From Lingula anatina (taxonomy: Eukaryota; Animalia; Brachiopoda), in the NCBI GenBank assembly GCA_051362555.1, contig CM120641.1:45886401-45950400 (forward strand): DNA of 64,000 bases, written 5' to 3'. Every line of letters starts with the position of its first letter. Position 1 is the stretch's first letter. The notes below the pieces were generated by a model, which was not told the origin of the DNA, made no database searches, and saw nothing but the letters and a program-made list of their open reading frames with translations. Shown here piece after piece: positions 16,001 through 51,700 of the stretch. A program made the position numbers and the translations under genes.

Positions 16001-19000
16001 CGATCGGTGAACTAATATTCATTGCTCAATCCCGAGTTTGGCGTTTTTACCCACGATCCTGCATGCAAAGCGGTACGAAACGTGAAACTTGTAACTCGCG
16101 GATCTGACCGAAAATGTATTATGAGCTTTTTTTTACTCACTAGAAGATCCTGCAACGGTGAGAATACTTATCGTTCTGTCGTGCTAAGGTCTATCTGCAC
16201 TTGCACTCCGGTAAACAACGCTGAAAAAAAAGAATCATAATTCCGCGTAGCACACGATTCTTGTACGTGCCACTTGATGGATTTTTATTGGCACGTGAAC
16301 ATATCAGGAAAGAGTACAGAAGCTTAATTTTGAGATAGGAAGTCTGTGAGTTGACTACGGAACGAATGTAGGAAGTTATCTCAAAAATATGAAATACGTT
16401 ACTTGTCAACGGAACAAATGTAGAATATCTCATTTTTGAAACATAAAATAAGCGACCTGTCTTTGGAACGGACGATTATGGGCGATACGTGCTCTGAGAA
16501 GACTTAAACTCTTCTTCAAATTTTTGTTAAAAAAAAAGTAAAAAGGAATTTTTATGCATGGTAAGGTTGTTTGAATTCAGCACAGATGAAATATAATGTG
16601 CAGCGAAATGTTATATTAACCATAATAATATTAATCTTAATACATACGAACTATCTATCATTATTGCTAAAAAATGGTAATTATAAGATTCCAGCTGAGC
16701 TAAGAAAAAAGTGGATTGTCTGCTTTGTTCTTGAGGTTAACCGTCCGGTCATTCATGGATTAGTTTATTTAATTATTCGCATTCGAAGATTTCGGGTGAT
16801 TATTAAGTCGATCACAAATAACGTTGGTCTTGTTTGTTCGATTAAAGACGATCAATTACATGAAACGCCATGTACGCGCCGTCTGTGACTAAACAGCGTC
16901 CTCTTCAGATCGAATGATTTAAATGAAACATGATGACACTTCAAAAAAATTGGATGAAAATTGACTTTAATTGCAAGTGTGCTCGAATATAGCTTGTGTA
17001 AGCCGTCTACACCAATCTGATCATGTGTTTTTGAAATAGTGAACGGGTCAGGAGGAAAGGTGAATCGACACGGCATCTTTACCGAAAACTACAGTAAAAA
17101 GAAATCAAAATTGAAGGCTTAAACCTATAAAAGTGACTTTCTAATCAGAGCATGAAACGCGCATTCGTTGCACTATCCGAACTCTGTCGGCGCATTTCAC
17201 CCAACATGTTGCTTGACATGCAAAAGGATGTTACGTCCCAATGTCTTTGTAAATAAATCTTAAGATATTACAGAGGAATAAAAGACGTTGACATGGATGA
17301 CATAACCAAGAAAATTGAGATGGCATCTGCAATTTCCTGCTAGGCGAAGCCTGAAGCTGACTGAACACCTTTTACAAAGTTAACGCACGAGGCGGGAAAT
17401 TTTAGCCCTTTACAAACGATAATTTAACCCTGATCGCCGAGGGGCGAGGCGAGGCTGGGTTGAAAAGTATTCCCTTCTACACCTACTGTTCGTATAACAA
17501 GAGAAATATGTATTACTTTTCTATGTTAAAAAACTGAACTGCACTGAATATATAAGGTGAGGAATCACGCATGCGTTTTACGAGAACACGACTTTCGGCA
17601 ACTTGTTTTCATCATTTCTCTAGAGACTTTCTCCAAAAAATAAAAGAAGAAAAAATATACAAATTAACCGCTAAGCGTCAACACAGGTGTTTCGACACTT
17701 AAACCACACGACAACATTAAGGGACGCCTTTTAACTAAACTAAGGTGTTTGTCAATCAAGTACCGTTGGTGTTCGCATTAAATAGGTATCCCCCTTTCTA
17801 CGCAAGTTGTCGAGCGTGGCGTACTTTGAAAAAAAGGCTGCGGTTTGACCACTGCGTCTAAGTCCACACCACTGGGGTTGCCTGACCAGAATGGGGCGGG
17901 AGTAGAGTGACGGAGATACACAACTTGTTGCTGGCCGCGGCATAGCTCAGAGGGATTTCAGAGACAGTTTCAAGCCGAGGAGAGTTGTCTGTGCATATAT
18001 CAACACAGGATATCAGTTACATCATTTACATACGATTATTCCACCGCTGGCCCAGGCGAATGTGGGGGAGCGGGCCCTTTAACGTATGAAGTAGCGAACA
18101 TACCGCACATACGTTGCCGATGCGTAGAGTTGACGAAATCTACCTCGAAACCTGACAGTGCATAGATACTAGCCCACAGCTGTGCCGAGAGCGCACGCAG
18201 ACACTCTTTGAACTTTCGGCAGAGCCCTGAGATCAGTTGACGGAAGGAAATTTCGCAGTTTCTGAGCTAACAGGCGGCAGAGGCTGCAGCTTCTTTGCCA
18301 CTGAGCATACAATCAGGCGGGACCTTGGAAAGAGGAGGCCACCGATTAAGTTTAAGCTGTTGAGTGTTGAGTTCCCCCGCACAAAGTTCGCCACCAACTT
18401 CAACCTTTTCATGAATGGTGGAGGTTAGCGCGAGCAGCAGCAACAAGCCAAGCGTGCCAGAGCATCGCCGTGGTGTGATTCCATAGAAATGATGTACATC
18501 AGTGAACCATATCCCTACCAATACAATCCTAAACCCGAGTATTATCACCCGAAACCGACGCAATACGCGGCCTGTGCCTACGAGGACGTCGGCCGGTTCG
18601 CTCACCACGCCGCCACCGCCGCCGGATTTCACGAGGCGTACCACGGGGCCGTGAACCACCACCCCCTTGCTGGCACTTTTTACAGCTACAGCAGTTGTGC
18701 TAAAAGGGGGCGAGCCAAAGGTAGGGGGAAGTTAGTTCCGGGAGCATTGTTTTCTCATTACTTACTTATCATGTGTTGTTTGCTTTGGAATCCTCCAGCG
18801 AGTGCGACGACGATGATAATTGTGCGTCGTTGATCAATCTGGACGAGTTTCTTGCTCAGAATTCTTAATGGCCATGATAATCACTCCGCCCGTGGGGTTT
18901 AATGCACTGATTATAAACGACAGGAGCCAACAAGTCCTTCCCCCTTATAAATAATAATAATAAATTTACACTGAGGTAATATTGGGGATTATTAATATTT

Positions 19001-25000: not shown

Positions 25001-28000
25001 ATGCATGGATTACAATCAATATACTCGCCCGTTCAATCTTAGTGTGAATGAAATGAGCAAAGGATAAAAGGTACTTTATGAAATGAACCCTCATTGGAAA
25101 AGCAATCAGTCGAATTGGTAATAAATTAGTAATAAAAAATGTCGATATGGTGAGCGTAGACACAGATTTTACAGACAACAGTCCAATCAAGGAGAAGCAA
25201 ATGCAATTGTTCAGCGCGCTAAATCCTTAATAAGCGTGTCATTGTTACAGAGTTGTACGAGCGAAATTGACATTGTATTAGAGAAATTGACAGTGTCGTC
25301 TGTCTATAGAGGCTTTATTAGATGGGATAGGCAAATGATTGAAAACGTCTTTGCTGAGAGTTTTACAATTATTTCCCTAATTTATCCTTCAATAGCACAT
25401 CGCTTTTTCAATAGACAAGCGGAATGGTTAGTTCTTTATCCATCTCATTTCCCGCTGATCCCTGAATAGACTTTTGCACTGTATGTTTGAAAGAAAAAAG
25501 TAATTTCATTGATGTTAGGTCTTTTATCTAATCACCTCTTGCTCTGCACGAGAGCCATAACAGGGAATCCTAATGTTTCCTCATTCTGTAACGCCATTAT
25601 CTCATAAAAATCTGGCGATAAAAACACTATTAGGGCCTTCGCTGTAACTGCATATCTACATCGGGTGTTCTTCACTGCCAAAGACACCACGACGCACTGA
25701 AACTCGTCAAGGAAACGGCTGTTTAAATAAAGATAAAGAGTAAATAAAAATTAATGATTACTGTAAAAATATAACCAGCACATAAGTAGATGTGCCCTGA
25801 CGATTGGAAGGAAGGGTCGAGTAGTAAAGTTCGCAATGCTTGAAAATTAAGTGTCCTGGGAGACATACATCAAACGAGCACTGCACAAAAACAAACTTTC
25901 AGTCAAATTCACTCCGTTTCCTCTTATTTCTACGAATGGAAAATTATGAACTTCCCAACATTCTCCCCATTGTTTTTTTGCTGTTGCCCGGCTTGCGTTC
26001 ACTGGTCGTCTGCTACTGGCCAAGCCGTGCAGACCGAGTGTCGTCTGATCATACAATACCAGGTCGAGGCTCCCCCTCAAAAAGTGAAGTGACACGTGAC
26101 TTGTCATTTGGAACAATCCTCATTGAAAATAAAATGCAGGGAAGAGGAAGCACCAAAGCGGATGATGATATGATCGATGCGATATGATTGACTGGGCCAG
26201 TCTTAGGGGCATTAACTTTTACCCAGAAGCTTATATTATAGCAGTACGTCGATTACGGTATCTATGGTAGTTCTTTTTGAAGTTTCTCGGTTGTGGATGA
26301 GAACACCTGAGTAGCCTGCGCAGCGGTGTCTTTTTATCCGCGGGATCTCAAGTCGGGCGACATTAGTTAAGGTAGCAAGTGTGAAATTGTCGTCACTTGC
26401 GCTCAACTCTACGCACAGCCTCACCATTGAGCGACATTATCTCTCCTGTCAAGCAGGCTGGCCCGACACTTCAGGGCTGGCTGCTGAGGCCTACAGCATG
26501 GATCTAACAACTTCGTATCGATACCACTCTCATCACAACATGATGGACTTCTATCATTCATGTAAGAGTAAGTACCCTATCAGTCTCTTTATGCCATCAT
26601 TGACTTAATCCGTTAGTTAGCACTCACCGGCGACAGCTCCGGCCTCACAAATTGGATTATCTCTGTCGGGTATGTGGTTTATCCTTTCACAATAATTCTC
26701 GACAACAATTCCTTGATCACTGAGGCCGGATTGGTAATTAGTAGCTAAACTAGTAGGTCTGTTGCTGTAGTCGTCGAAGTTGTTTCAGCTATTTAACTAG
26801 CCCGTGGTCAAAATAGTACAACAGATACGAAAACATAAGGTTTAAACAGAGAGAGAAAAATCTCCGTCTTCTCGGTTTCAGTGCTGTTGACTGACTATAC
26901 GCTCAATGCCGGGGAATTTTTTTAAACAGCCATTGCTTGAGCAATTGTGCAACAAAAGTGTAATAGTGCGTTCAGCGTGTGCATTAAAAAGTGGTCATGT
27001 GCATCGGTGACTGCCAGCATGCGTGTTGCTTTAAGAACCCGAGTCAGATCGCTGCTCAGAGCCAACAGGGCTTTAAGGAACACATCAATGGCTCTGTGAG
27101 CAGGAATTAACTACCCATGGCATATTGTTTCGGTTCCAGTCATCTACCTCATATGCAGTTCGGCTTGATGCTAAACAAATTAGGTACGCTATATATATAT
27201 ATATATATATATATTCGCACGTGAACGACTGTGTGTGTTTGTGTGTGTTTGCCTGTGTGTAATGTGTCATAATCTCATTTTCTGGATTTATTTCGTCGTA
27301 GTTAGTGTTCCGATTGAAGAAAAACTTGTGGCGAAACGTAGTGGAACATTAGTTGTAGTATTGCGAATGTGTTAATGTATGTTCATGTAGTCGAAACCAC
27401 ACCGGCGGCGGCCATATTAGTGCTTTAACAGGGTTCACCAGCGTACTACGTGGTGATTGGAAGACGACGTCTTTCCTATGGGTGCACTGATCAACTTGGC
27501 ATTGTTCAGATTTTCACAAGACTGGGACGAAATAGATACATCTGCGATAACGCTTCTATACCAAGTGTACGGAATGGGATGTTTCTTTTCCTCAGCTTTG
27601 TTCGTCTTTTGCACATCGTCTTAAGGCATCTTGTTCTCCATTAGCCGTCCCCTTTGAAATCCCGTGTTTCCAATCTCGTCCGTCCCCATCTCTGTAAACA
27701 ACGCGTTCTGGGGGTATTGTTGGTGGTTGCTGCTCCGTGGAATATTATCACTGTCCTATTTAGAGCGAGATGAATACGCCAAGGGATTGGTGAATTACAC
27801 ACTTAAGGGTCGTCGGATTTGAGAGAAAACCACGTTTAGAATGTTTTATAACAGTGAAATGCGACGTTTCTTTGGGTCTGTCAGGAGTTTGAGTGCAAAC
27901 ATGTTGGTAGTAAACAATTTTGATACAAGAGTTAGGTTACGCTTTCTTTCATCTGCCGGGGTGATTGTTGTGCGCGTCTGTATGACAAGTGAGTTATCTG

Positions 28001-31000
28001 TGGTCGTTGAATCTGTCCCTCAATGGGGAAAACTAAGCGTTAAGAACAAGAAAATGCACAGTCGTTTGGTTGGTATATGTAGCATTAAACTTACCGATCC
28101 TATCAGGTAACAAACGCCGGGTTTTATTTCAAAAGAGTTGCCGTTTTCCTGTCTGTACCGTATTGTGGACGTTATTCTGTAAAACCTTGTACAACATAAC
28201 ACATTGTATACGCATGCATTACCATATGGAATGGCACAATAATATATATGATAATCTTTTGTGAAAGACGAGTTTAAAAATAATATTTCCTGTGATTTTT
28301 GTTTATAATTTATGTTCCTTGCTTTCGTCATGTAATAATTCTTTTATATTTAAGATCTAGATAATTTCAGTGCGGTCTTTAATATCGCCAGAAAAGACCT
28401 TCACGCACAATTTATATATATATGTATATAAAACAAAGAGTATTTATAATTTAAGAAAAATCAAAGGTTGTTATAATTTTACAAAGGTAAACAATCCCAT
28501 AAAAAGCTTACACAGGTCAATTAAGCCAGCAAAATATCCCAAAAATGGTCTGGATGATAGGCAAGCTTAGAACTCTGTCTCCTACCAGTTTTGTATAACC
28601 ATCACTCTCAATCAAATCTAAATTTATTTGCAAGATTTCTAAAACTCACAACTTATAATTGCTGTTAAGGCCGAACTTAATGTACATTTTGTAAGCAGTA
28701 ATGCTATCAATGGTTACCTTTGACTACTTTTAAAATAAAAAATATGTCAATAACTCGCCACATGGAATACCTTAAAACCCAGGTTTTAGCTAGAGGACCT
28801 TTATGCCGTGTAAAAATCTAAAACGGTTATCATTCTTAAATTGCTTCATTTAAAATGATAAGATGTTAGGAATTAATTTTGCAGTAAAACGACCATATGT
28901 GTGAATAATCTGACCTAGGGGCTTGATGTGTGGGTTGCGCTCTAGTGAAGTGCACCCCTCCCTGTCATCCTCCAAAGGTGTCACCTTAAACGGGATATTG
29001 CTGCTAATAACTCCACTGTATAATACCAACACATATGATAGCAAATATGATTAGCAAGAGTCGGTATTCAGCCCAGGGCGACTGACTGTCACCAGGCCCC
29101 GGCGATGGACCAAACTCGTGGCGTGTGTCGTGTTTGGCGGGTTTAATTTCCCTGACGGGTGAATTGACAGATCACGTCAAGAGCAATCATAACTGCCCCT
29201 ATTGTTCCAGTGCAAATGAAATTAAACATATCGAACTGAGATGCTAATTAATTTTCGAAGCTTTTGATATTCATGTTTTTAGTCAGTTTGCTCAATGGGA
29301 AAAATTCCACGTGTTGTCTGTATATTGTTCACTCTATAATCGGATTTTATGTACATATTTATATACAAACATATCTATATGAATAGCATTTATTGCAGAA
29401 AATTGTTGTATATTCAAGCATCCCCAAGTTTCAGCCATATTCTGTCATGTGGTATTTTTTATTTGTTACCACATTATGCTCTCTCAATTCAGGGGTAAAA
29501 AGAGGATCGCTTTCGTTTATATTTTATAATTCCTCCTTTGCTTTTTAGAACATAATCCAATATTAGCCACTCTTGCTATCGACTTATTTAATCATAATAC
29601 GCCATATGCTACCGCTATAATTTGCAGGAGGGTTTCCCCCATTAATTTGGCTTTTTCTTTCCTTGTCTAGGCCACGGCAATCTGAACCAATTGGGAGGCG
29701 TTTTCATCAATGGTAGGCCCTTACCCGATGTAGTGCGCCAGCGTATTATAGAGCTGGCTCAGCAGGGAGTGAGGCCATGCGACGTCTCAAGACAACTACG
29801 TGTCTCACATGGCTGCGTCAGCAAAATTTTATCCAGGTAAATTTTTACAGTTTTCTTACGACTCTTTTAATTTTTCTATTCCTCTTAGGCCATGGTGGTG
29901 TCAACCAGCTCGGCGGAGTGTTCGTCAACGGTCGGCCTCTTCCGGACGCCGTTCGGCAACGGATAGTTGAACTGGCGCAGCAGGGAGTCAGGCCGTGTGA
30001 CATTTCCAGACAGTTGCGCGTGTCACATGGCTGCGTAAGCAAAATATTGGGCAGGTAAATGGGAAATGGGAATTATTCCAGCTAATACGTTCTGCTTGTT
30101 TTAGAAAGTCAACATACCCTTTTTGTAATAAATGAGAGATGGGATTTTTTTTGTTTTGTTAGTTTTTTTGCAAATGGTTGAGGGGTATTTTTTAAAAAAA
30201 GATCTGACAATTCCACGACCCTCATAGAACTGTTCCTTCTTTAGAAATACCTATTTTCAAGCTTTCTAATTTTTATCTCTTTTTCCTTTTACCACAACGC
30301 CTGTAATTAATGTTAAGGGGGAGGGCTACCTTGTTTAAATCCAGTAAAATGTCTGTTCTGTTAAAAGAAACAGATACACTCTTGCAATCTGCAGCCGTAA
30401 CCGAACACCGCTAAACGTCGGGCCTCAACAATACGGTCTTTTAATAACAACACGCAAAAAAGATTTTCTTTAGAAATGCCGGTTTTCAAATTCCGCATTA
30501 CGAAGTAAAGTAGATACTTATTTTCAGCATTTTTGTATCAAAGTTAAAAGAGCAGGATCACATCAAAGCGACTCCCTATAGTGAGTGGAGACGACTGTGT
30601 TTTTTACCGAGGTAAAATAGTCGTGACCTCTACGATTAAACAGCACCTGTTCCAACGTTCGTTCTCTAAAATAATTTTTCTGACCGATGCCAGTTTCTTT
30701 TACCCTGAAATGAGTTAATCTTCAAAGCTGCTACTTTTTCCAACAGCAAAGTCTTGCATCTGAGGCACTTCTTATTGATTATATTGATCTAAAAGGCCTA
30801 AGCAACTGCACCGATATTTCAAAGTCGAATAAAAGACATGAAAACTGCGTTATTTTGTGCCTTTATACAGGAAAAAACTTCAATGGAAACGACGTTTCGT
30901 TGAGGTCAAAGTCAGGCATTCAGCAAATCATTCTGCTAGCTTTATATTACTTCCACTCCACATGACGAGGGCTGAGATATTAATGGTGCCGTGAAGTGTG

Positions 31001-34000
31001 GTGTTAGGAGTCTTTAAAGAGCTATTTTTTCTTTGTAAAATACGGATTTTACCAACCAAACTATTATACTTATTTGTGATATTTTCTCTGGGGCTTTCCT
31101 TCTAGATGATTCATCAAGTATACTGGTTTGTTTTCTCACAAACACAACAATTATACCAGTAAATTATTTTGTTTTCTTCCCCCTCTCCAAGTCCTTTTAA
31201 ACATTTTTAAATATCTGCATTTTTCACTGCTTGTCAGCCTACCGAATTTAAGTGAAAATTATTACCGCTGGAATTGGACTGATTGTTGAGGATTGTCGTG
31301 AAGCTTGCTCCCTATGGCCTGAAGGTGACGAGGAACCCCCTTCCGGCGACAGATCGGAGAGAAAATAAATGACCTGCTACAGCCAATACTTGCACAGATC
31401 AAATAACAAGACAAACATTTCGCCGTGTTGAACTTTATTGTTTTACATTTAATTCGCCCCCTTGTGGTTTGTGGTCTATTAGTTATTCTGGAGAAAAAGG
31501 AAAAAAGAGTGATGGATTGAGAAATAACGCACATTCTTAAATGATTTTAAAGAAATAAAATTAACTCAATGAAACGAATAGAGAGATAAATATTAAGGAA
31601 TAGAGAAAACCTTTTGAAAATGAACATTTGATCCAAAGGCGAAATCATTTTATAGAACAAAAATCATCACAAATAACTAACGTAGCCGACCAAAGGTTTC
31701 TTTAGTGTGGAAAATAGAGACAAAATGTAAGCACTATAACAGGCGAGGGAAATTTATGTCCCTGTCACAGAAATCGAGATTGTCAACGAATATTAAAACG
31801 CTGAACATTTCTTAGTTGCATCTTATTAATTTAATTCGGTTGTTAACACCTGGGTATCGCACTGACCATCGTCCGACCCATGCATCACAACGCCATGGAC
31901 GACCCCGTATCCAGATTTGGTCAGAAGAGCTACGTAACCCAGCGTCCGATAGCTGTTTGATTTATGTCTAATTTATGACATTTTCCTCGTGTCAATCTCG
32001 ACCCTTCGCGCCTCGCATCACAGGAATCCCACAAGTGATAAACAATCACGCATTAATTGTTTATTTATCTGTGTTATTACTCCAAACAACAATACGGCGT
32101 CACGGACACCTTGGCCGGCAGGTCGCAGGTCTCCGTTAGAGTGCCAATTAATCAAACTGATTAGACCAACCGTACCGACTCATGGAGATCAGGGAGAGAT
32201 ACCCGGCACGGTCGCGTTACGGGGTTCGATAGTATCGGGTCCACTCAGGCGCCGGGTCAATCCTTATAGAATAAGATTTTGGTTGTTTGGGAAATAACGA
32301 AGAAGGAAATAACGAGAATCGAAATAAATAATACTGGTCGTAAGAGCACATTTTAAAGATAATAAAATAACTGTGTAGCTTACCTTCTTTTAAACCATAA
32401 TGAAAACCCCGTCTTCTGTGGCACGCCTACTCCTAGAAATAATTTCTTAGAAATAACCACAATTAGCTTCATGAAGTTGTTCTTTATTACGCATTTATAG
32501 ACTTTCATATTACCCATGACATATTCCCATTTCGACTCGGATTATTAAGCAAGCGTGTTTTATTTTCTCCCTTTCATCAATTGTAATAGGGATATTGTAA
32601 TGAAGGCAACTCATCAGATGTGAGGGCACGTAGCAATCCTGATTCCAAAGGAGAGAACTGTATGGTCGTCATAGCAACGCTACATTCTTTCTTTCATTTT
32701 ATACACGCTTTCTAGTCGGAAGCGTAATCAGACACTGTGATTTTTTACCTCGTTTCGCTGATCAGATTTTTTAATAAAACGCTGTAATTTGTCAATTGGT
32801 TGTGAGCTGAGATATAATAACAACAGCACTCGGCCAAGTAAGCCGTTTGTCAGTCAGAATTTGTTGAACACTGAAGTACGGAGGATTTTTGACCGAAATT
32901 CTAATTCTTGCTCCGATATTCTCATATAAGCTCGATGTTTTGTATGATTGTATACAACTGTCATATTTTCAACATCGGATTTTGATTTCAGATACTATGA
33001 AACGGGTTCCATCAAGCCAGGGGTCATCGGCGGTTCCAAGCCGAAAGTTGCCACCCCCAAGGTTGTCGATGCCATTACGAAATACAAGCAAGAAAACCCG
33101 ACGATGTTTGCTTGGGAGATCCGGGACAGACTTCTAGCGGAGGGGGTGTGTTCGCAGGACAACATCCCCAGTGTCAGCTCCATTAACAGGTAACGTCAGT
33201 TAGAGACCATTTCAGATAGCAAGAAAGTAATTATAAACAGTTCACGTCGTTAGGGCACCAATAAAAGATCCATAAAGTTGAGAAAAGGGGAGATTTAACT
33301 CGATGCGTTCTTCTATATGACACTTTCATACATTATGAAATAGAAATACGTATCTAAGTCACGTTTTTGACACCTACGTCGTATAATTACCGCTAAATTG
33401 TCGTCAAATACCTTAGTCGAAACGTCACCAGTCTGCATTTGACAGGGTAGAATTAGAGGGCGTGAGAGGGAACGCCCTTTATGCTTGTATTTACACAATC
33501 CCAAACGAACCCGCTTGATATTATACAAAATGGCATCTTAATATGTGATGCCGAAATACGCTTGAGGCTAACTTTGTTTTGTTCCTTGAAAAACAAGATC
33601 GAAGGGCACTTGTTCATCTGTCAACCCGGCTTTGAATTATTGTTTGAAAGTATTCTCAGAGCGTAATGTTATCTTCGACTGTTGCGTGCAACTTGCTATA
33701 CGTCTTTGGAATCAATAGGCATATGCCTTTTTTTCTGTTTAGGTCTTTTTAATGATATGAGTTGTAATAAATCGCACCTGCAGACTTCAAATCAAAATTG
33801 TGTCCCGGTCGCACTCTTTGGCTTAATAAGTAGAGAATTTGCGCAAGTCCCGTTGCTCGTGCGTTGAAATGTGGAAAAACAATACACCTCATAATTGTTG
33901 AAACTATTTCGGCTTTATTTGACACCTAAGAGGTCAGCACACGTGCAAGAAGAATTTTTTCAGCAAGTTAAAAAGAAACTGTTATTAAGAATTCGTGTCT

Positions 34001-36737
34001 GTTTAGGTTATAAGTTGTCAAAGTGAATAGTTGTGGCAAATGTCTTGTGTACGAAAATTGGAAAGTAGGACGGGTTTTTATTCGATTTAAATAGCGGGAC
34101 ACACAAACAAAGTTTTATTAAGATCGGCAGGCGACGGTATTTTTCCAACATGGTAGCCTACTTCTGCGTTTATGTTATTATTCAATCAAAATATGATTGG
34201 CAATATTTTGCCCCGACAGCGAACGTCAAGGGCAATGAAGTGACATGGTGTGAAAGAAAACAACGTCGCTCATCACAAGAGCAGTAATAAAATCAGAAAA
34301 AGACAAAACTGATGTCTCTTTTAGCTGGCAGATTTTAATTACACGGTGTTCAAACAGAAACAATGTGGAGATGCAGAGGGATTTTTAAAGGCTCATCTTT
34401 CAAAGACTGATGAATTTTTAGCCTGGGTTGCCGTCACATGGCAGTTGATAGGTCTGTAGTGGAGCGGAAGAACTGCAGCAGCTCGAGTAATGCGCCCCCT
34501 TCGCACACCTGCCGGCTTAAACACGAGTAATCCTAGCACTGTAAAAACCACAATTTCCAGAGTCGATGAACAGAACAAACACAACCGACTCAAAAGACCA
34601 AATGAGATAAATAATGAAAAGGACAAGGTATTACCCGGTGACACTCTACACTTTTGAAATTTAGGGGATTCACGATCGAATTAACCTCGTCTTTCATACT
34701 CCAAATCGCAAGCTAGACTTTCTTTCATTTTCTTCTCCCCGCTTTTCTGCCGCTTTAATAAGCAACAATCAATGACTTGATAATGGGAAGAAGTAATGAT
34801 GGAAATTATTATTGGCTCTTTGGGACGAGTGGAAAATGTAGATAGAGAGACGAGACAATACTTAATGCGACGGGGATCAGCGGGGTATGGGCCTTGCTAT
34901 GAAAATTCGATTATCTCCCATTAAAATCTTAATTTTGAAAACTCTTCGACATCATTTCATTAACAGGGTAATAACACTCTACGACAGAAGGTCCTATTGA
35001 GTTAATTGACAATCACATTTAAAGAATAACACTGTGCTCACAAAGAAATCTGACGGGGACTGTTTGCTATTTCTTAATCACTCGCTTACTCCAACATTCT
35101 ACACTTACGGATATTGCTTCGAGGGGAAACGAATTGACTTTCTGACTTTCGAGTTCAGGAAACCAGCCCTTTCAATATTTACTTGGAAATCGCTTTAAAT
35201 AAAAACGACCTGTTATGGATTGCCGTATTATTCAAAGCTTAATAGCAATATTAGATACTTCCTTTGAGACTCGGATGAAGCTGAGAGTGATATGTGTGAT
35301 TTTAGAAAATGTTGTTCGGAAATACGTAACATTATGTGAAGCGTTTCGATTTTAATTAAGTTTTCCATTAAAATGATTTAAATAGACTCAGAAACTTGAG
35401 ATTGGAGACTGTTTAATTCTAAAAGAGATGAATGCAAGAAATTTATTAAAAATGACATCGGTCTCCGAATTTGAACTGCCGATTTAAAGTTTTTCGATTG
35501 AAAGTGTTAAGTAATTACCAAGATAGAGACCACTCTTACAGTTAAAACGCGCACATGCAATAACAATTCGTTTTCCTTTGCGTGAAGTGTCAACAATATT
35601 CCTTGTTAAGTCCTCGGGGTTATTCTGAAGTTCGACTTTCTCTGGGAAACATAAGATATTGATAAAGGCCGGGGCGTAGCACACCGAGACCGCTTCGATA
35701 TTGCCGTTTGGTAAAGGAAAAAGTCATTAATCACTGTCATCGTGGTAGCCGTCAACTACTACACAATACAAATCAAAACTCGGACGACAAAGTGCACAGC
35801 GGCATGTGCAAGTTAATCAAGTACCAGTATCGGGCTTAAAAAGTACGCACTGTTTTAAATGTCAAATCTTCTTTCTGTAATTATTTCTGGAAAATGCACG
35901 CAATGCCAATTAAAAATAACATTAAATGGCATGCTAAAAACCCCTATTGCCTCGTTCAAAGTTATTAAAAGACACAAAGATCCGCTGAAATTACTTACTT
36001 ATTTCACTCTGAGGGTACATTGTTAAATCTTGGATATCTATTTCCGTGGAAATCATACGGCCGAATTTTCATCCATGGAATGAATAGGTGTCAATTTCTG
36101 ACTTATCCGGATTTGCGTAAAATTTCTTACACCTGTCCCAGATCGCTTAGAGAAAGAAAATTAACAAAAAAATTGAAATTGCTTTTTTGTCCTTATTTTT
36201 AAACATAAAAATCACGTATTTCATTTAAGTTTTAGGCCTTTTTAAGCTATTTAACAGATGTAGATACGAATAAATTCAAATCGACATTGATTTAATTACT
36301 ATATCCCATGAGTGTACGTCAACATATATATATTGACATTTACATGCCTCGCTATTCAGCTTTTTCCTCGATATTTTCATTTATCACCCAAGCTTTCACC
36401 CTTTTCTCACAATAAAAAATTCCCTTTCTACAGAATCGTACGTAACAAAGCAGCCGAAAAAGCCAAGAGTCAGTCGCTCCACGGGGGTCAGCCTTCGCCT
36501 GTTTCCCCGGGGAACCCCAGCCCTGTGACTCTCTCCCAGGTGCCGACGAACGCGGACGCCCTGGGTAGACCCGGCCCCTACTCCATGAGCACGATACTGG
36601 GGATCCCCAACCACTCCGTACAACAGGGACAAAACTCCGACATCAATGGAAACAAGAGGAAAAGAGAAGATGGAGGTAAATATTTTTTATTTTACTAGTT
36701 CAGGTTTAATTCTATTTCATCATCATCATCATCATCA

Positions 36738-39700: not shown

Positions 39701-42700
39701 AGAAATAATGCGTTTATCATTTACGCGCTTTTGTTATGCTTTGTTTTCTAGTGAACGGCCACGGTGAGAATGAAAATGACGGGAGCAGAGATGACCACGA
39801 AGATGCAAGGGATATTGACTCGGTAAGTAGTCTAAGTTAACGTGATTTTGAATGTTTGTGTTTTAGCAGAAGTATCGATTTAGGCAGTCATGTTTAGCAT
39901 TCAACATTTGCAGAGCATTCTGTAGGCACGGGTTTCTATAGAAGACGGTACTTTTGCAGAGAACTTAAAATGAAGCAGATAATTTTACTGCGGAACGCTC
40001 GTGACGATGTAATTGATTCTACTTGTTTAAAATATTTTGTTTAGTATTTAAAACTAATTCATTTAAATAAGAGAGGCAGACAGAGGCTTATGATGAAGTT
40101 TACAGAAGGAGATTAATTTAATTGTGATGCCGGGAAGATGGGATGTTACTGGTTTCAGTGTTACCCTTACTTTTGGATTAGTTTACGTCTGTTTCATCTT
40201 CATAATTACATGGCGTGGAGATGATGGAGCCTTCATGCAATTGATGCTCTTTTAGATGCTCTTTTATTTTCTCTTTCTTTTCATCTTCTGCTAATGAATA
40301 TAGTCAGTTAAATTTTCATGAACAATTATCTTAAGTTTTGAACTTACCGACGATATTCCCTATTCTTGTTTTTTTTCATTCAACTAGAAATTGTTTTACA
40401 CATTTTGAACGGAAAAATCAATCTTTATTCATAAAACTTTCAGTTATGGACATACCGAGGAGCAAAACTTCCAAAGAATGAGGTCGACTCAGGGGACTTA
40501 GCAAACTCTATCGCCAGCACATTTCAAATTCCTTCTTACGGCGGAGGGGGCAGTGGTTCGGCCATGCAGCCGGTGGTCAGTTCGCCCGACGCTGGTGGGG
40601 ACAGTAAATCCCACGAGGTGGTCACCTATGGCGCTGGACACAGCATAGCCAATATGAACACTGCAGTAAATAACTTAACTTCACCGACTGCTGCCTCAGA
40701 AGCTCAAAACAGTTCGTCAGGAAACTATTCCCCTTCACTTGGTAGGTCACCGACCATCATGCTTTCTTCTCTTTTCTTTTTTCCTGTCCTAAACCTTCCT
40801 TCCTTCCTTTATTGATGGATTTTTATAACTTTTCCTCGCCAAAACTTCATCTTTATTGTTGGAGATTTCAACTTTAAACTTTTGTCAACTGCATGTTTGT
40901 TACATGAGGGTGAAGGATAAACATTTTTCAAATTCAAAGACAGAACTTGCTTGATTTTTCTGTTGTCTCCAACCTTATAACAATGGGACCTTTTCATAAG
41001 AGAGTAAAGGTTGAAGTACATGTTTGTAAAATTATTTGATGTTCTTAATGGTCTTGAGCAAAGGATGTTTTGAACTGTCCAGCTTTGTTTTCTGGTCAAT
41101 GTTTTTAACGATGGCAAGGCTGATGTAGCGTTGACAGTCAACAGAGCAGTTAGGTATTGTGTTAAAGCTATGCTAGGAATACCGTTGCTTGACTGTAAGC
41201 CTGCCTGTTTTAAAGCTATCACTTTTAAAAGACGACGTGAAAGCCACTTGTAAAAAGATGAAAATTCAAATTGCAACTTTATTTTATTTTCAAACATTCA
41301 AACTTGTTGCAATTTGTTGAAGAGAGATTTTTCTTACAACTTTCTTTTCAATTGCCTAATTGTTTCAAGTGGGTGCCAATTTATTTTGAAATAACTGGAT
41401 TTCATTTTCAGTCTTTAATGCCTTATCATGTCAACTTGATAATTTTCTAATAATATTTATTTACAATTTTACTGTAAGCTAAAAACAGAAGGAAAGATCA
41501 TAAAAGGGAAAAGAATGACACTTTTTAAATTTATTTAAGAACACAAATTTTCTGAATGCATTGTTTGCCCTGAAGCAATATGTTATGAGGCACTATATGC
41601 AAACTATTTTAATTGCAAAAATCATTTCAAATTTATAATTTCACAAGGCTTTAAAGATGTATAACATGCACACTACTGAAAGATAATAGCTATGGACAAA
41701 AAAGCCTGACTTTTGCAGTTGATGAAAACATTTCCTGATAGAAAATGTAATGAGAAAAAAGAATAAGTTGGTTTTCAAAACATTCTTGGTAATTCATCAT
41801 CAGGCATTGTAGCTTTTCCTTTTTTCTTCTCCTTTTTTATATTTCTTTTTGAAAACGGTATCAAATGCGCTTAAACCTTCAACATTTCCCATCAATCATT
41901 GACATTTTTTTAGAAATTGGGTGAAAGAAAGAAACATTTGGTGCATTCCGACTTCAGAAAAAGTGGTTCTGTTTCACAAATTTTGACATAAAAGCAAGCT
42001 TACAAGAAATTATAGTATAGTATAAATGATGATTAATCATCTGTCACCTGTGTCTTCTGCTCATGTTTCACTCAATATGGGCACACTTAACTTTTTTTTC
42101 ATGTCTTTATTCTCAAGACCTTGTGCCAACGTCTTTGACCCAGGCAGTTGTGAGACCCAAAAGTGGAAAAGGCTGGGAAATTAAAGTTACCTTTTCTACA
42201 CAGTCCCTTTTGAGACCTTGCAGGTTATCTTACATATAATTGGACGATCTGGCCCCTCTTTTCATCCCTCCACTATCAAAAGATACACATGACAGGATAT
42301 TTGTTGCCAACCCCATTTTCTCCACTCATTTTGCAGGACAATACACTGACATTAAGCCATTCGAGCCCATTGCTGATTTTCTATTTGTGTTGTATGTAAT
42401 CATCTGTAATGTGAGCCACCTTACTTTCCCCCAATTCTGTAATTTGGGAGGTGGGGAGAGGGCGATTTGGCTGTCAAACAGCTGAACAGCTGTACGCGTA
42501 ATGAAGATGAACCCTTTTCTCTCCCAATTTTCTCCAATACTCAACAAGAGGCACAGTGCGGCTGTGATTATCTTAATTCTTTTTATCAAATTTACCGTCA
42601 TAGCTTTGTAAGCCTGTCTTTGTCAGGATTTGAAAAATATGGGAAAAAACAAACCCTTAGCTTATTATTGTGATAAGCAATCTTGTTATTTTTCAACAGG

Positions 42701-45700
42701 TGAGGGCTTGACTCATGGGTAAGAAAAAATGACAAACTTTTTAGGGTGAAAATAAACTGCATTATTTTTTCATAATAACCAGTTGACAATACAGCCATTC
42801 AGACATTAAGGAAACCAATTCTGGGTCTAAATTGTTGAGAAAGTATGCATTTTCCAAGATGGGTAATAGCATCAGCTACGCCCATCATTTGACACTTATG
42901 ATCATTGCATACATGTTTATCTGTCAGTGCACCTGTAATTAACAAGGGACAATAGGACCACCTAGGGGGGCAGAGAATTCCACAAAAAACACCCGTAAAG
43001 TTTTTGGTTGAAGCTGAAATTTACATGTAATTAATAACATCGTACCTTTGTGGAAATTGCCCATCAAAGTTAAACATATTTGACTACCATGTTTGAATAT
43101 TGTCTTTTTAAAACCAAAAGCAACAATTTTTTGTTACAGATATCCACTTGAAAATGTTAACAACACAGTGTGTGTCAGATACAACCTATATGATACATTT
43201 TATCAAAATGTTATGTCATCTAGTCATTGGTGAAAGAGAATAGCCAATTTTAATGAATACCCATTGTTGCTGTTTTTATCTGTAAACTAAACTTAAAGAA
43301 TTATCATCAATAAATTATTTCAGATAAATGTTTCTGTTATCTAAAACATTTGCAGAAAATTTATTTGGATTTTTATCACATTTTGCATCTGCATTTAGGT
43401 TCTGTAACACCTATTTATAATCGGATGGATGTTAAAGTATTGGAATCTCATCATTTGGCCGAACAGGGAGCTTTTGGGAGTAAGTGTCATACACAGTTAT
43501 AGCACTAATATCTAGATGGCAAGGGAATAGGCATAAAACGTATGTTACCTAGAAATGCTGAGGAGATAACATAATAGTCTGAGAGTAGAGGAAGCACTAG
43601 TTAAAACAGGTGCCTTTAGATTGGTAACTTGAATAACATTGGGATTGCTAGACAGTTTGTAGTGATAATTTGGTTTTTAAAATCCATATTTTTACCTGCT
43701 GTGTGGATAACCTGCACTTATTTGGATATCTCCATGTCTGAGTGCATTCTTATTTCTGCATTAATATTAAGAAAACAATGGAATAAGATTTTGTATAGAA
43801 AAAATACAATGTAAAGAATTGATTTTTGCTTAAGTAATATGCCCAATGACAAATCAATTTATGGAGTTTTAAACCTTCATTTTAGTTAACCTATTTATAA
43901 AATAGCTCTGTCAATGTATTCATTTGACACAAAAGCAAATATTTTTAGTATTTATTTAATATCATCTCATGCAGAAGATACTATTAAAGTTTTTAAAAAA
44001 ATCATCTAAATTGCAACTAGCACACATTGAATGTTTTGACTGAATTTGTCATTGTTGATTCTTACATAAATTAAAATTAAAACATATACATATTTCCACT
44101 CTTTGGACATAAAATACATACAGTTGTACTTGTTTGACATTATTTTTGATTGGACTCTTAACAGCAAGGGTTATAACTTGTTTTATTATATCATAAATAT
44201 TAATAAATAGATAAGACTGCATCTTTGCTAATTTAGACAGTTAAACTAGTAAAACTAATATGAATCAACAAAATTACACAAAACATGCAATTTTTCTGTA
44301 TATGTCTTTGAATTAGTTTTGTGTTTAATACAGTGCCCTCCAACTTGACACCAGAGTGCATACAACTTGAAATGAAAAAAAAAAACTGCATCCTTGCTCA
44401 CTGTGTAGTCACCTAGTCCCATGCCAGCGCCAACAAAACGTACAAACTATACACCTCATCATTTTCCTTGATTTCAACACAAAAGGATTGTTGTCCTTTT
44501 TTTTATCCATCCCCCTCAAGTCTCCAAACACATAATTTCCTAATTGATTGACATTCACCATCTAAGTAGTTTTCAAGCAGCCCATCCACTCATATTGTTG
44601 TTTTTGTTTGGGTTTCCTATTACTGCTTGATACATCTGACTGGCAGCTTGATTTGAATTTTTCATTTCCTCCTTAGCCTTTTAGTATTCCAGCATAAGTG
44701 ATCTTGGTTGTATTGTACCTCCCTATTCCAATATCTCCCAGTAGATAGAGTTGCAGCAGTGTTTTCCTAAATGGATTTAGTTCCAGTGCCAAACACAAAA
44801 GTCTGATGGAAAAATCTCTTAAATTATTCAGCAAAAAATAGGGTATATGGAAATTAAATTAGGGATGGAGTCGATGAACTGGTTAGAACATAGGGCTCTG
44901 TTGTATTAATTCCTCTTATGTTTGCAGAGCAGATTTTGTTGTATTTATTTTATTTGTTCTCATCAAGGTTTTGTTAGTGATCAGTAGATTTCCTGGTTGA
45001 GATAATGTATCTGCTGTTAAAACCCCATCAATACTGCATGGAGCATATTAATGCATGGCAAAGACTGTTCTTCCATAGAAAAAGATACTGATTAGCCAGC
45101 AGGAAACAACCACCACCATTTATTGATCTTTTCTCCTGCAACTTTTTGTTTTAAGTTTTGTTTTTAGTCATCTAAACTTTTTCAGTTTTCGATTTAGTAT
45201 TTGCTGTTCCATTTTTGTTTGTAGCTAACAACAACAACAACAACACGCCAGCCTCAATTAACAATGTCCCATCATCCCCCATGAAAGTCCAGACCGAGGC
45301 TGCCCAGGCGGTCGAGACCAGCAACGGTAGTTTGACCGAACTGAAACCCATTTCTCAGGGAGTTCCCACTCCGCAATCATACAACAACATTCCGTTTAGT
45401 TCCACAGGGCAGTATTGTAAGTGGACCACAAGTCAGAGAGGCATAGACTGACCTTTTGCTTATTGATACTGACCTCAACTTTCCATAACCCTCCTCTCCT
45501 CTTCCTCACCAACCTCATCCTCATCCTCATGGGGTTTTAATATTTCATTGATGTTCTGGTTTAGGGTCTAACCAACATCCATCCTGCAGAGACACATCAA
45601 CATTATACTTTTACAGTAACAGTCGTAACAATAATATGGCCTTGTTTTGGTTCATGGTTTGATTTGTATTGTTTGTACTAATTATTGTCCTGTAATTAGC

Positions 45701-48700
45701 ACTTAACAAGATTTTATATCTGCATTTTATTAACTTTTTAAATAATTTATTTATTTTCAAATTACACCATGTTGCCCATTGTTTTCATTGAAATTTATCC
45801 ATTTCCCATTACAGAAAGTTAAACAGATCTATAAAAGTAACTAATCTCAAAGAATATTGGTTTATTTCTTAACTGGTTTCCACAAAATTTGGCATATGTT
45901 TGAACCAATAATATAGGCAGTATGTTCAATTTTAGTTTTGTGCAGTATATTATAATTCTGATGAGGAATAGTGTGAGCATATAACTGTTTTCGAAATGAC
46001 TTTTTTGGTTTTGTAAATTATGTTCATTTATTGTTATGGATGCCATTTACACAGTTAATTTTAAATAATACCACAAAAGAAATAAATTTAGTTCAGATAC
46101 AAATTTCTCCCCAATACCTTGTGAGATATAAGAATTTAAAGTGTTTCTGCAACGGGAAATTTAAGAAAAATCATATCAAATCTGAATAGATATATATATA
46201 TCTACAAGTTTGTCCATTTATTTCTGCTTATTTTTCATCTTTGGTACTCTTGGTTTGTATGGTGTTGCTTGCATGTAAATACCAAATTATTGGCTCAAAG
46301 CAATCACAAAGTGGATATCACTTCTCTTTAACATTTTTGTATCTTTGCTTGTAGCATCTAGATAAATTGTTTACAATAGGAATTGTGCGCATCCAAGTTA
46401 TTTTCTACCTTCAAGCATCTACAGCTTTTGTTAATTGAACCTTTCTTGTTTGCTCTGGGGAACTGGGAAGTTAATTTAACAAATTTGTTAAGCATTTTAT
46501 GGCATTGATCAATATTCTATAAGTTTAAACATTCATCAGATGTACTTATTAGAAATTGTAATTTTATAATTTGTTACCTTTCTGTGTGATTCATATCCAC
46601 TTACATACCTTCACTTACGTCATGATTATTTTACAACTTTACTTTCAGTTTAATTCCTAGATCTTGCTACATCATAATGGTTATAAATTAATCATAAAAA
46701 CATTTTCTCTTTCAGCACAAACTAACTACACAGCCAGTCATACATCTTATAGCAATCAACCCATGCCGAGTTTGCCACCTCTGGTTTTGCCTCCAGGCTC
46801 TAGTAATTATGCCACAGGCCCTGTAACAGGTGAGAATTCTAAACTATTTTACAGTAGGCAAAAGTATGATTATGTCGAGTTATTATTTTAGAAATGGGTA
46901 CTGAAGCAAGGATACCCAAAATAGGCAGAACTGTGGTTAAATAGGGCACAATAACCAACCAATCAGAGACTTGGAATTCTTTAATAGGTAATCATTTCTC
47001 ATCTTATTAAGGACTGTTATTCTGTAGGGGAGAGTCTGAGGGTCCGTATGCATACTTCTTTTTATTATGGCTCTTTTTAGTGGTATTATGTGTTTATTAC
47101 TAGATTTTATCAATATTTTTTTTCACAAAGATGGGATGTGAAGGCATTTCGAACAGGGCACACGGCACTTTCTCACAATAAAGGTCCTATTTTCCATCTT
47201 CACTTTGAACAGTAAACACATTTGTCACCATTGAAAATGATGGAAATAAAATACTTAGTCCACATATAGAAAACAATGCAGATATCTGTCCACCACCGCC
47301 CCTGATTTATTGCCTCTCTGTCCGGACAAGACTGACCGGCTTGACCGGTCTGTCACATTCAGAGATTTCCAAGTGATTTTTAAGTTTGAAAACTGAGTGC
47401 AAAAACCTTGGCTAATATATCTGTCACATGGACCTTTCAGGTTACAATGCTTATTTATACATATATGAGGAAATGTTGAAAAGTTATTGATTTGTCATCG
47501 TTTAACTGGTTCAGCTCACTGCTTAGCAGTTTGGATCAGAGCTCTGTCAGTGCAGAAAAGTTTAATTTACCATGTAGTTAAAAAAAAAAAAGAAAAAAAA
47601 ACAATGGAGAAAGTGATCAAGCTTCATGCATTCTGTCATACCAAGTGTCCATTATGTGATGTAACAACCCATATGTTATGAACCAGTAACAGGCGCACAA
47701 CATGAGTAAAGAAAGAGAAAGTTTTCCATCATAGTTTTGAAAACAAAGACTAATTCTGTAAATTGAGAGAAGAGATATAATATTGCCTGTTTATTGTTCT
47801 TTTATTTAAGGATAGAAACTCGTCTTGCATGTATCAAAACTGGTGTTTTATAAACCAATATGAGCTGTAGTTTTATGTCAAACACAAGTATTAAATGAGA
47901 GAAAAGGTATATTGTCTTTTGTTTATTGTTCCCTCACTTAATGACAGGGACTTGGATAAATAGGCACTCACTGTATTGAAAGTTTACATGGGTTAGGAGT
48001 GATAGATCAGCTAGTTTTGGCACCTGTAGTTTGAACATTGAGAAATAATATGAAATCAGGACATGTTAAAGAAAAAAAAAGAAAAAAAAGAAAAAGGAGT
48101 TTATTACTATAAGAATGTTTTTTAAACATCTTTTCATAAGAATTTTTTATGAACAAGTTCATTTGATGTGCTAGCCCATATGTTTACCTTCTCCGAAAAG
48201 AGGTTACAATTCTACTGTTATTTTGGTATTTGGGCATCTAACTTTGAAACAAAGTCTTTGCATACATTGTTCAGGTTATATTTCTTTTTATACAAGTTTC
48301 AGATATCCTCAAGGAGATAATCATTAAATCGTGGCTTTTTTGCTTTGTTATATGGTTAATTAATTTTTTAAGAGTCATTTCTTTGGAGTCATTTCTTATC
48401 GTGGATGTAAATCCATTCTTTTATTTAACTCAAGATTGCACCATGTAGCTGATTTTAAGGTTGAATCAAGGACTTGAGCAGGCGAATTACACAATCACTT
48501 CACATATTAATGTTGTCCTCCATGGCATTCTTAAAATTAATCATAAAGGATGAAGGGTATAGTTGCTACCAGTTGATGGGAGAGGAAGAGAGGCTCCTTT
48601 TCTTTGTGGTCTTTGGCTTCCTTTACATCAATTTTTCCCCACTATAGTTCTGTTATTTGTAAAATAAAGATACCTCTTTGATGCCACCCATATTTTGAAA

Positions 48701-51700
48701 CTGATACCATATCATACCATATCACTGCAAAAAGAAAAAAAAAACACATTGGAAACCACCAATAAGAAGAACAGTTGTTTGAATACAATGATATGACTTG
48801 TGATGGGCGAAGAAAAAAAAAACGTTGATCGGAAACAGTAAACTGTTTGTCAAACTGTGTGGTCTGCTTCTGCCACAGTGCCAGTAATTTACAGGTATGG
48901 TTACAAATACACCTGTGCCGTCTGCTCCTGTGCCATTCATAGTGCAGGCATTTTTCCTAAAGCCAGAATAAAGCAACTGTCCAGAAGAAGAATAGGCATT
49001 CTAATGGAGCAGTTATTTTTCCTTTGTGCTGGTGGTTTATAAAAATGACGAAGGAATGTTTGGCAAAGCAGTAATTGCTGCGGAGAGTTTAAGGAACAAA
49101 TTTAAGTGGCTTAGCTTGAAAAAGATATGCAAAGGTAAAATTTACAAAAAAAAAAAAAAAAAAAAAAAAAAAACGTCTTTAATTCACAAGGTCATGGCTG
49201 GGTCAGATCTCAGTTGGAGGCAGAACTCGTTTTATTTATACCATTTTTTTTCTCTAATTTTCAAAGGTGTGAATATTTTTCGTTCTTTTGGAAAGTACTC
49301 TTTCTATATATGTTATCAATTTGAATTTGAACCATTTTTTATCACTTTCCTTTGAAAAAAAAATGAAAAAGTTTCAATCACTTGTTTTCTACACTGTGGG
49401 ATCTCATGGAAGACAAATGGTGAAAAGCAAATGTATAATTAAGCCTAAAACCCACATAGGAATTAACCACTCGTGAGTCAGCCCAGACAGTTAGAAGTCA
49501 GAAGCATTCCCTGGTGATCTCAGTAATGAAGATCATCATTCTTACATGACTGGCCGTTCTTGGATAGGATAAAAAGTATAACAAACTTAGTGGGTAATAT
49601 GTATTTTCATCTGCCAGTACATTACCCTGTTCTCTGCAGGGGCTAATATAGCTAATAGGAATTTTTTCGGTTACAGTGTGGTAGTCAAGCTGAACCAGAT
49701 CTCATTCACAAGTCTAAAGATGGAGTGCTTTGACTAGGTCTTTGCTTACTAGAGTGCATCATATAGTAACATTAAATGGGGAAGGCTGTCTGTTATTGTG
49801 TGTTCTGCGCTGCTAGGAGCAGAATCAATGGGCCGTGGTGGCAAAATCAGTTGTGGAACACTGGGCATTAGTGTCACTTTCAGACACCCTGAGTCTCTGC
49901 TTTGAATACCATAGGGGAGGGTATATGCCACTGTTAAGGGAATAGTCTGCATGGTTTCAGGCAGAGCACAGAGAGAAAAATACACTAACAAATTTCAAGA
50001 GGTGTTCAGCAATTTTCTAGTGCTTTTCATATCGCTCCATAGCTGAGCTGCAAATCCCACAGACCATTTAATAAATCATTTTTTTCACAGATTTCTTATA
50101 AATGACCATTTTGTGCACTCTGGCACTCTGGGTTTACAGATGTAAATGCTGTTGTTTTATTCATAATGCAAGCACTTTCATTTTCATTTCTCAAGGTACT
50201 GGAAAGACGGGAAAGGCATTCAGTAAAGGATGGTTGGGGAGGGGTTATCTTCAACGTTTGTTTTAGGATATATGTGAGCACACTGAATTGGTTTCTGAAG
50301 CCAGTTTTGAGATATATGAGCTCTGAAGTCTAAAGGTTATTTTGATTCTTATATGTTAGGAGAAATGGCACCACAAGTTTCAGAGACTTGCTAGATGTTG
50401 GCATAAGTTTGTTTGGCAAAGACGCTTGGTTAACTGTTTCCAAATACGTTCTGGCTCCACTACAATAATCAATATAAGTCATGCATGAAAATATCACCTA
50501 TGGAGAATTCATGAAATCTTTATATGACACCGTCTTTTCAAAAAAGTTAATTTTGGAAACAGATTTCAAAGCAAACGACAAATAAAAGAGGTAATGGAAA
50601 AGTTCATTATTTGGCAAAATTTACAAACAGATTTGCTTGATTACGTTGAACAGACAACTTTCATGTTGTTTCAAATTTCTTATTAAAAAAGAAGGAAAAA
50701 GGACTTGAGGTAATGGGTATTAAAGGCAGGCAATTATTAATCAGTAATGGGGAGATATGGTAACAGGTTAAGTTCCTTATAAGCTTAGATGGAAAAAAGT
50801 AAAGCCGCCCTTTTAATACTCAAATTTCTAACCATGCACACTATTCGTTGTAAATAATAATCTTTGCCTCAGCTTGGGCTCATAAATCAAATTTTTAAAA
50901 ATTATTAAAATTATTGAAATTTTAAAAAAATTGCCTGTTATACTTATGTTGTTGGGCTTGGTCTGATATTTCAAAAGCATTGATTTTAAGATTGGCATTC
51001 TAGGTCTAGTTCTAACTAATTCTAAATCTACATGGCAAAATTCTTTTAAATCAACAGTAATTAAGGTTTTCATCTTTTTTTTTTCTTGTTTGAAAGTTTG
51101 ACATTTGTGCTACTCTCCTTCATTCATCCCTGCATTGATTATAAGATTTGGATTCTAAATCTAAATGGCACAGTTCTAATTTATTGTAGAGAATAAAAAG
51201 AGACCAACATTCTTTAAAATCAACAACTTAGTTTTCATTATTTATTTATATATTTTTATTTTTATTTTATTTTTATTTATTTATTTTTTTTTTTTTTTTG
51301 AAAATTTTATATTTGTGATTACATGGTTTCTACCCTCCCTCCATCCCTTGCCCATACTGAATCTGCACAACACTGATGGTATCTAGGTTATTAAGGTTAG
51401 GAGAAGCTGACACCACGTCACTTCCAAGCAATATGAAACTAAACATTCTCTAAACCTGGAGCTGGAGGAAAGATGTTGTTGGATACCACATAACACAATG
51501 ATTTATTGCAACTTCTGATGTAATGAGAAGTTTGAACAAGGTTAGTTTTTTTACTAAGAGATGGTTTGTCCTCTTGCATTTTATGCAACAAACAGCTGAA
51601 ATACCAAATGGTACTGATTTTTTAGATTAAAAGGGTCTTTTAATACAAATGTAATAAAAAATATAGATTAAGAAAATAGTTAAAATCTTACCTTTAAAAA

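Follow-up and report, generated by a model that had tools for sequence, protein, structure and literature searches.

A tandemly duplicated, mutually exclusive PAI exon in the Pax2/5/8 gene of the brachiopod Lingula anatina

Mutually exclusive duplicated exons within the DNA-binding domains of transcription factors are an arrangement of a known kind. The E12 and E47 forms of TCF3 (E2A) arise from exons 18a and 18b, which are of the same size, 74% identical and mutually exclusive, and which swap the DNA-binding region of the protein (PMC6120717, in part), while FOXP1 carries tandem-duplicated mutually exclusive forkhead exons with an orthologous event in Drosophila FoxP (PMC8373072 and PMC9013439, both in part). 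For the Pax family the described variants Pax6(5a), Pax8(S) and the medaka forms Pax2.1(2a+) and Pax2.2(ext24+) contain insertions that disable binding by the PAI subdomain (PMC4488758, in part). The paired domain is among the most conserved of animal DNA-binding domains, and the splice variants reported for it disrupt or omit some of its parts. In the present case a single gene of Lingula anatina is found to produce two intact versions of the PAI subdomain, both confirmed in RNA, with the unusual version the commoner of the two. The window analysed is a stretch of 64,000 nucleotides from this brachiopod (GCA_051362555.1, contig CM120641.1, positions 45,886,401 to 45,950,400 of the forward strand), and all coordinates below refer to it.

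A preceding sequence-only reading of this DNA had pointed to the duplicated exon and left its novelty unverified. That novelty proves to be partial: both isoform sets already stand in RefSeq, where automatic annotation has modelled the two copies in L. anatina Pax2/5/8 isoforms at this same locus, and the mechanism is known, whereas the main texts of the open-access literature yielded no paper on mutually exclusive PAI exons in Pax genes or on the Lingula pair. Searched by term, the excerpted texts of PMC13121700, PMC4595640, PMC4999882, PMC5333810 and PMC5356317 contain no Pax exon duplication, and the same holds for excerpts from the main texts of PMC4625944, PMC3759438, PMC9741552, PMC8373072 and PMC5740500. 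Expression of pax2/5/8 in the brachiopods Terebratalia and Novocrania has been described without isoforms (PMC4999882, in part).

The locus and its duplicated exon

The gene at this locus is Pax2/5/8 of L. anatina, the translation of exon 4 giving a 100% match to an L. anatina protein. The cluster of the matched protein holds 12 RefSeq isoforms that bear the names Pax-2, -5 or -8 (XP_013394320-34), and five of these, mapped to the window with tblastn, place coding exons over 6984–55096. The PAI pair is preceded in this set by four alternative first coding exons and followed by a single exon for RED, one for the octapeptide and seven more (Table 1), of which the exon at 39752 agrees with loose read ends behind 36675. 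All four alternative first coding exons are of phase 1 and they are spread over 20 kb; a single first exon had been implied previously, and this is the one point on which the earlier exon picture needs adding to. The exon at 26498–26567 has a second donor at 26561, 6 nt earlier, and the first exons and donors combined with the two PAI exons allow at most 10 different N-termini, and RefSeq contains 9 of these. Towards the C-terminus, one or both of the exons at 43399–43479 and 45225–45416 are skipped in some RefSeq isoforms.

Table 1. Features of the Pax2/5/8 locus in window coordinates.
Feature	Coordinates	Strand	Remarks
Distal alternative first coding exon	6984..7062	+	Phase-1 donor; joins 2A and 2B; loose read ends and a RefSeq pair
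Alternative first coding exon	18489..18720	+	4 of the 12 RefSeq isoforms, each carrying 2A; read coverage, no joint listed
Alternative first coding exon	26498..26567	+	Conserved protostome Pax2/5/8 start; joins 2A and 2B
Alternative first coding exon	27117..27183	+	Two RefSeq isoforms only, of which one has 2A and the other 2B; no read joint listed
PAI exon copy 2A	29671..29836	+	Paired-domain residues 1–56; divergent copy: N4, L5, I13, I27, V39, S55
Intron between 2A and 2B	29837..29888	+	52 nt, GT..AG; 2A donor and 2B acceptor; in-frame stop at start
PAI exon copy 2B	29889..30054	+	Near-consensus Pax2/5/8 copy
RED exon, single	32992..33189	+	Rest of paired domain; acceptor common to 2A and 2B
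Exon 4	36434..36675	+	Octapeptide 36579–36602, then KR-rich motif
Other single-copy coding exons (39752..55096)	39752–39822, 40444–40741, 43399–43479, 45225–45416	+	RefSeq proteins mapped
Other single-copy coding exons, continued	46716–46829, 53408–53494, 55014–55096 (stop)	+	RefSeq proteins mapped

Among solved structures the best relatives are Pax5 and Pax8. The octapeptide has M in place of the usual I at its third position, and the precomputed domains of the Lingula protein include no homeodomain family. The lophotrochozoan form of Pax2/5/8 has been described as an octapeptide followed by a KR-rich motif, without a homeodomain (PMC5333810, in part), and the Lingula gene fits this form in its octapeptide, its KR motif and its lack of a homeodomain.

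The two PAI exons, 2A and 2B, are each 166 nt in length, run from phase 1 to phase 2 and lie 52 nt apart, each with its own pyrimidine tract and AG acceptor and each with a CAG|GTAAAT donor. They are identical at 119 of 166 nucleotides (72%) and differ at the other 47, the differences falling 10, 3 and 34 times on codon positions 1, 2 and 3; 16 of the 54 full codons are the same in both, 31 differ synonymously and 7 non-synonymously. Four-fold sites differ between the copies in 16 of 21 cases, and the Nei–Gojobori proportions are 0.87 for pS, which is saturated, and 0.091 for pN. As a control for chance, 2A was compared with all other 166-nt stretches of the window, which share with it a mean of 41 letters (sd 5.5) and at best 66–67, against 119 for 2B. 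The flanking introns of 2A and 2B retain no similarity to one another except in the splice signals. Because the silent sites of the two copies are saturated, the duplication must be old enough to saturate them; judged by this comparison the tandem duplication is old and both copies are under purifying selection. Among the variants listed from RNA reads within 2A, all five are silent, for which the chance would be about 0.001 if they were neutral.

Only the PAI exon is duplicated. Comparison of the window with itself by blastn returned the PAI pair, one 41-nt repeat near 63.1 kb and nothing else, and tblastn with five whole isoforms gave a single match each for the RED exon and for every later exon. 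The 41-nt sequence is a direct repeat at 63079–63244, its copies being 88% identical and 125 nt apart. The restriction of the duplication to this exon, the coordinates, lengths, phase, acceptors and donors of the pair, and the case for silent-site saturation with purifying selection had all been put forward from the letters of the window, and they hold throughout; a recount of the codon classes reproduces the earlier figures exactly.

Splicing of the two copies

RNA reads from four of nine raw runs (X16, X19, X22 and X24, with 6–30% of each run read) were aligned to 18300–36700, and joints were listed when supported in a run by at least 3 reads with at least 2 starts. Three of the four runs, from two studies, are informative, X19 having contributed 6 reads and zero joints. 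The joint 29836^32992, which links 2A to exon 3, is carried by 7, 0, 12 and 9 reads in X16, X19, X22 and X24 respectively (28 in total) and its counterpart from 2B, 30054^32992, by 3, 0, 1 and 4 reads (8 in total). On the other side, the first exon is joined to 2A (26567^29671) by 0, 0, 5 and 4 reads in the same runs (9 in total) and to 2B (26567^29889) by 0, 0, 3 and 3 reads (6 in total). The 3′ joints thus come from three of the four runs and two studies, and the 5′ joints from one study. A joint of 2A to 2B (29836^29889) is not listed beside these 51 single-copy joint reads, fewer than 3 reads per run being below listing, and no joint that skips both PAI exons is listed in the RNA runs at the same threshold of 3 reads per run; with this threshold and with 6–30% of each run read, double inclusion may occur at low frequency. 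The 12 RefSeq isoforms contain 2A in eight cases, 2B in four and both copies in none. All four single-copy junctions predicted by the sequence-only reading are therefore present in RNA, and the joint that it expected to be missing is unlisted in the reads and found in 0 of 12 RefSeq isoforms. By their equal length and phase, their shared flanking exons and the lack of a listed joint from one to the other, the PAI pair are tandem-duplicated mutually exclusive exons.

The excess of 2A over 2B in the joints to exon 3, 28 against 8, would have a p of 0.001 if the reads were independent, which mates are not. Loose ends with short overhangs add 4 reads to the joint of 2A with exon 3 (X16) and 5 to that of 2B (X22), and with these counted the excess of 2A is better given as nearer 2–3.5 to 1 than as a fixed figure. 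Run by run, and with the tissue unstated, the ratio of 2A to 2B is 7:3, 12:1 and 9:4, with no significant difference between the three (Fisher p 0.28 and 0.32). No regulated use of the two copies was seen among these runs. Coupling of the choice to promoters was considered and rejected, as 2A and 2B alike are found spliced to three of the four first exons when reads and RefSeq are taken together: loose ends before 29669 (8 reads, X22) and before 29887 (5 reads, X24) map to the exon ending at 7062, and the first exon at 18489 is the one paired with 2A alone, in 4 RefSeq models and no read joint.

How exclusivity would be enforced is suggested by the arrangement of the exons. Since 166 nt does not divide by three, inclusion of both copies brings 2B to a stop after 26 codons; skipping both PAI exons and joining exon 1 to exon 3 gives a stop after 47 codons, and either copy read into its own intron is terminated at once. 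Within the 52-nt intron, motifs resembling branch points stand at 11, 22 and 34 nt from the donor of 2A. A distance of less than 50 nt from donor to branch point (in human data) and frameshift with nonsense-mediated decay are known mechanisms of exclusivity (PMC5740500, in part), and frameshift is also given as an enforcing mechanism for mutually exclusive exons in PMC8373072 (in part). In the Lingula gene exclusivity would arise first from the 52-nt intron, the removal of which would be hard because any branch point lies less than 50 nt from the 2A donor, and frameshift with nonsense-mediated decay of the wrong products would act as a second safeguard. Against such a steric step, invertebrate introns of about 52 nt can be spliced. 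RNA pairing was tried as an exon selector and set aside, the fold over 29600–30130 showing nothing beyond chance, and no stable structure, when compared with shuffled sequences (z −0.75).

Two further observations concern the reads themselves. The RNA of one study differs silently from the window at 5 exon positions in 2A, 6 in exon 3 and 5 in exon 4 among those listed, and so many silent differences over 29747–36590 suggest a distinct Lingula population. Intron 3 (33650–36105) is covered by stranded poly(A) reads of X16 on the gene strand at a depth of 2–4, near that of exon 3, and this cover represents unspliced or slowly spliced RNA.

Two versions of the PAI subdomain

Each alternative exon encodes the PAI subdomain, and hence a DNA-binding region. 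With the paired domain numbered as in chain 6pax_A, the copies differ at seven residues, given as 2A/2B: N/G4, L/V5, I/V13, V/A21, I/V27, V/I39 and S/G55. The Pax2/5/8-type residues Q42, R44 and H47 are the same in 2A and 2B, as is helix 3 up to residue 54; positions 42, 44 and 47 are those which we take to separate the DNA specificity of Pax2/5/8 from that of Pax6. For comparison 352 non-Lingula proteins were assembled, and the PAI subdomain was placed in 347 of them, giving 94 distinct segments, a count that takes the best PAI of each protein and leaves out second copies (P0008, P0010) and five proteins. Five of the seven differences (L5, I13, V/A21, I27 and S/G55) are found in other paired domains, L5 for instance in Pax8 and I13 in domains of the Pax3/7 type, while N4 and V39 of 2A occur in 0 of the 94 distinct segments. 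Pax2/5/8-type segments have G4 in 41 of 41 cases and I39 likewise in 41 of 41, and the residue at position 4 varies with the Pax subfamily, being G, E or R.

Set against the commonest PAI segment, 2B differs at 2 places (52/54 identical, with 53/54 identical to a chiton protein) and 2A at 7, Q31 being shared by both, which leaves a 6:1 excess of changes on 2A. Copy 2B would have kept the ancestral sequence, and the changes would have accrued to 2A, for the most part in its N-terminal beta-hairpin/turn (G4N, V5L, V13I) and in the cores of helices (V27I, I39V). An AlphaFold model of 2A shows the PAI subdomain with its three helices at a pLDDT of 81, is unreliable at residues 2–11 where N4 and L5 are sited (mean pLDDT 52), and in a structure search retrieves Pax5, Pax6, Prd and Pax8 as its first four matches. 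Positions 4 and 39 of 2A correspond to Gly7 and Ile42 of PAX6, at which Gly7Arg is associated with total and Ile42Ser with partial aniridia (PMC5956696, in part); these human replacements, Gly by Arg and Ile by Ser, are harsher than those of 2A, by Asn and by Val respectively.

On these data we think it somewhat probable that the two intact, alternatively spliced PAI copies give products that bind the same kind of site and differ only in affinity, stability or partners, the sameness of the site being expected because the two share Q42, R44, H47 and helix 3 as far as residue 54. The two proteins, seven residues apart, would then tune affinity, stability or partner contacts rather than switch specificity. 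The pair has probably lasted because neither form can wholly replace the other: over the long period that saturation implies, a single mutation of a splice site could have dropped a useless copy. Two of the 2A residues, N4 and V39, point the same way, being absent from the 94 other segments and placed at PAX6 positions with aniridia variants. The earlier description of the exons as a switch between two DNA-binding domains is apt to this extent, that two intact PAI versions are used one at a time; the recognition elements, helix 3 and positions 42, 44 and 47, are unchanged and the substitutions are mostly conservative, which does not bear out the remainder.

The copies might instead be near-neutral and redundant, used at a fixed ratio for the same job, with each selected only as part of a dosage-sensitive protein pool. 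The changes are indeed mostly of the conservative kinds V/I, V/L, V/A and S/G, both copies are used at a similar ratio in all three informative runs, purifying selection is by itself no sign of functional divergence, and the 6:1 excess of changes on 2A rests on small numbers. We nonetheless regard redundancy as rather unlikely, the main argument being that a splice-site change could drop a spare copy at no cost and yet both have persisted to silent-site saturation; furthermore, two of the 2A changes replace residues, G4 and I39, that are invariant in the other Pax2/5/8-type segments. If 2A and 2B were equivalent, the pair would be a tidy but ordinary duplicated exon.

The beta-turn region of the paired domain is in contact with DNA and also, in the case of Pax5, with its partner Ets-1. 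A true switch of specificity, in which 2A would read other sites or recruit another partner through its changed beta-hairpin/turn and the exon choice would be regulated by tissue or stage as for TCF3 E12/E47 or FOXP1, could draw on the clustering of three of the seven changes in this region (PAX6 residues 7–19) and on the tabulation of PAX6 Ile29Val with total aniridia, from which it follows that small PAI changes can matter (PMC5956696, in part, for both). N4 and V39 are moreover unique among the 94 distinct segments, position 4 is subfamily-dependent, and the odd copy 2A is the commoner one (28 against 8 joints). Such a switch is nevertheless improbable in our view, as the recognition helix and residues 42, 44 and 47 are unchanged between the copies, L5 is known from Pax8 and I13 from Pax3/7-type domains, usage is alike in three runs, and all but one of the four first exons join 2A as well as 2B. 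Residues Q7, L8 and R41, which are presumably the Ets-contact residues of the paired domain, are likewise identical in 2A and 2B. That the pair is an artefact or includes a dead copy, whether as a mis-assembled allele or paralogue or as a pseudoexon, is barely credible, as the sequence-only reading had argued: Lingula is polymorphic, with 3 in 100 letters differing within 2A in the reads of one study, but the 47 of 166 nt between the copies lie far above the allelic level, both copies are spliced to one and the same RED exon in reads of two studies, DNA runs from three further studies not flagged as the possible source contain 0.63–0.95 of the sampled words from 29640–30080, and RefSeq proteins agree letter for letter with 2A and with 2B, so that the RNA joints of both copies together with these DNA runs rule out mis-assembly and pseudoexon alike.

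Comparison with other Pax genes and with described exon pairs

Outside Lingula, no 2A-like protein above 89% identity was found among the best 120 of 6555 and the best 120 of 261 matches of two word-index searches or the best 150 of 2297 matches of a full HMMER scan, and among the 347 non-Lingula proteins with a placed PAI the best identity to 2A is 48/54. The protein searches were clustered at 90% and 50%, which hides variants, in one search even the Lingula 2A isoforms, and no other brachiopod or phoronid is among the named matches listed. For these two reasons the searches lend weak support to the notion that 2A may be restricted to Lingula. When sequencing runs were compared by the words of 29640–30080, no indexed RNA record was listed as containing them, and a share of 0.05 in four runs of another organism carries no weight as evidence. 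A second PAI-like stretch follows the first in Shaven of the moth Operophtera brumata (KOB72406.1, P0010) and in the open reading frame P0008; the second stretches of these two agree at 31 of 33 residues, and the two PAI copies of P0008 lie 188 codons apart and are 36/42 identical, from which the PAI exon was possibly duplicated independently in moth Pax2/shaven. Other proteins with two PAI matches (P0003–P0007, P0009, P0011 and P0013) were discarded, as they look like repeated or mis-built models of other Pax classes. It may be proposed more broadly that Pax genes diversify DNA binding by means of a duplicated paired-box exon, that the remodelled beta-hairpin (N4, L5, I13) of the major Lingula form changes targets or partners and is switched between tissues, and that the same came about independently in moth shaven; we hold this proposal to be doubtful.

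The Lingula pair is a single-gene parallel to the split of Pax2, Pax5 and Pax8 in vertebrates, and 2A and 2B form a natural matched pair, seven residues apart, for the study of beta-hairpin function. Of the two forms, only one may be caught by a given probe, antibody or phylogeny of Lingula Pax2/5/8.

The moth Shaven gene model resembles the Lingula gene in having a second, slightly altered PAI stretch, but this possible moth copy carries R31 and A36, which KOB72406.1 and P0008 have in common, and is apparently without the beta-hairpin. The FOXP1/FoxP pair is ancient and conserved, whereas the Lingula pair has so far been seen in one species. The exon swap in FOXP1 reportedly changes the DNA motif, as is said to have been found by Gabut in 2011. 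TCF3 and Lingula both have similar exons of equal size (74% and 72% identical respectively), the domain concerned being bHLH in TCF3 and the paired domain in Lingula; for E12 and E47 differences in dimerization and DNA binding and a regulated switch have been demonstrated, while the Lingula pair is known from sequence and from splice reads. Splicing alters the PAI subdomain in Pax6(5a), Pax8(S) and the medaka variants as it does in Lingula, but the Lingula gene trades one complete and intact PAI for another of the same length.
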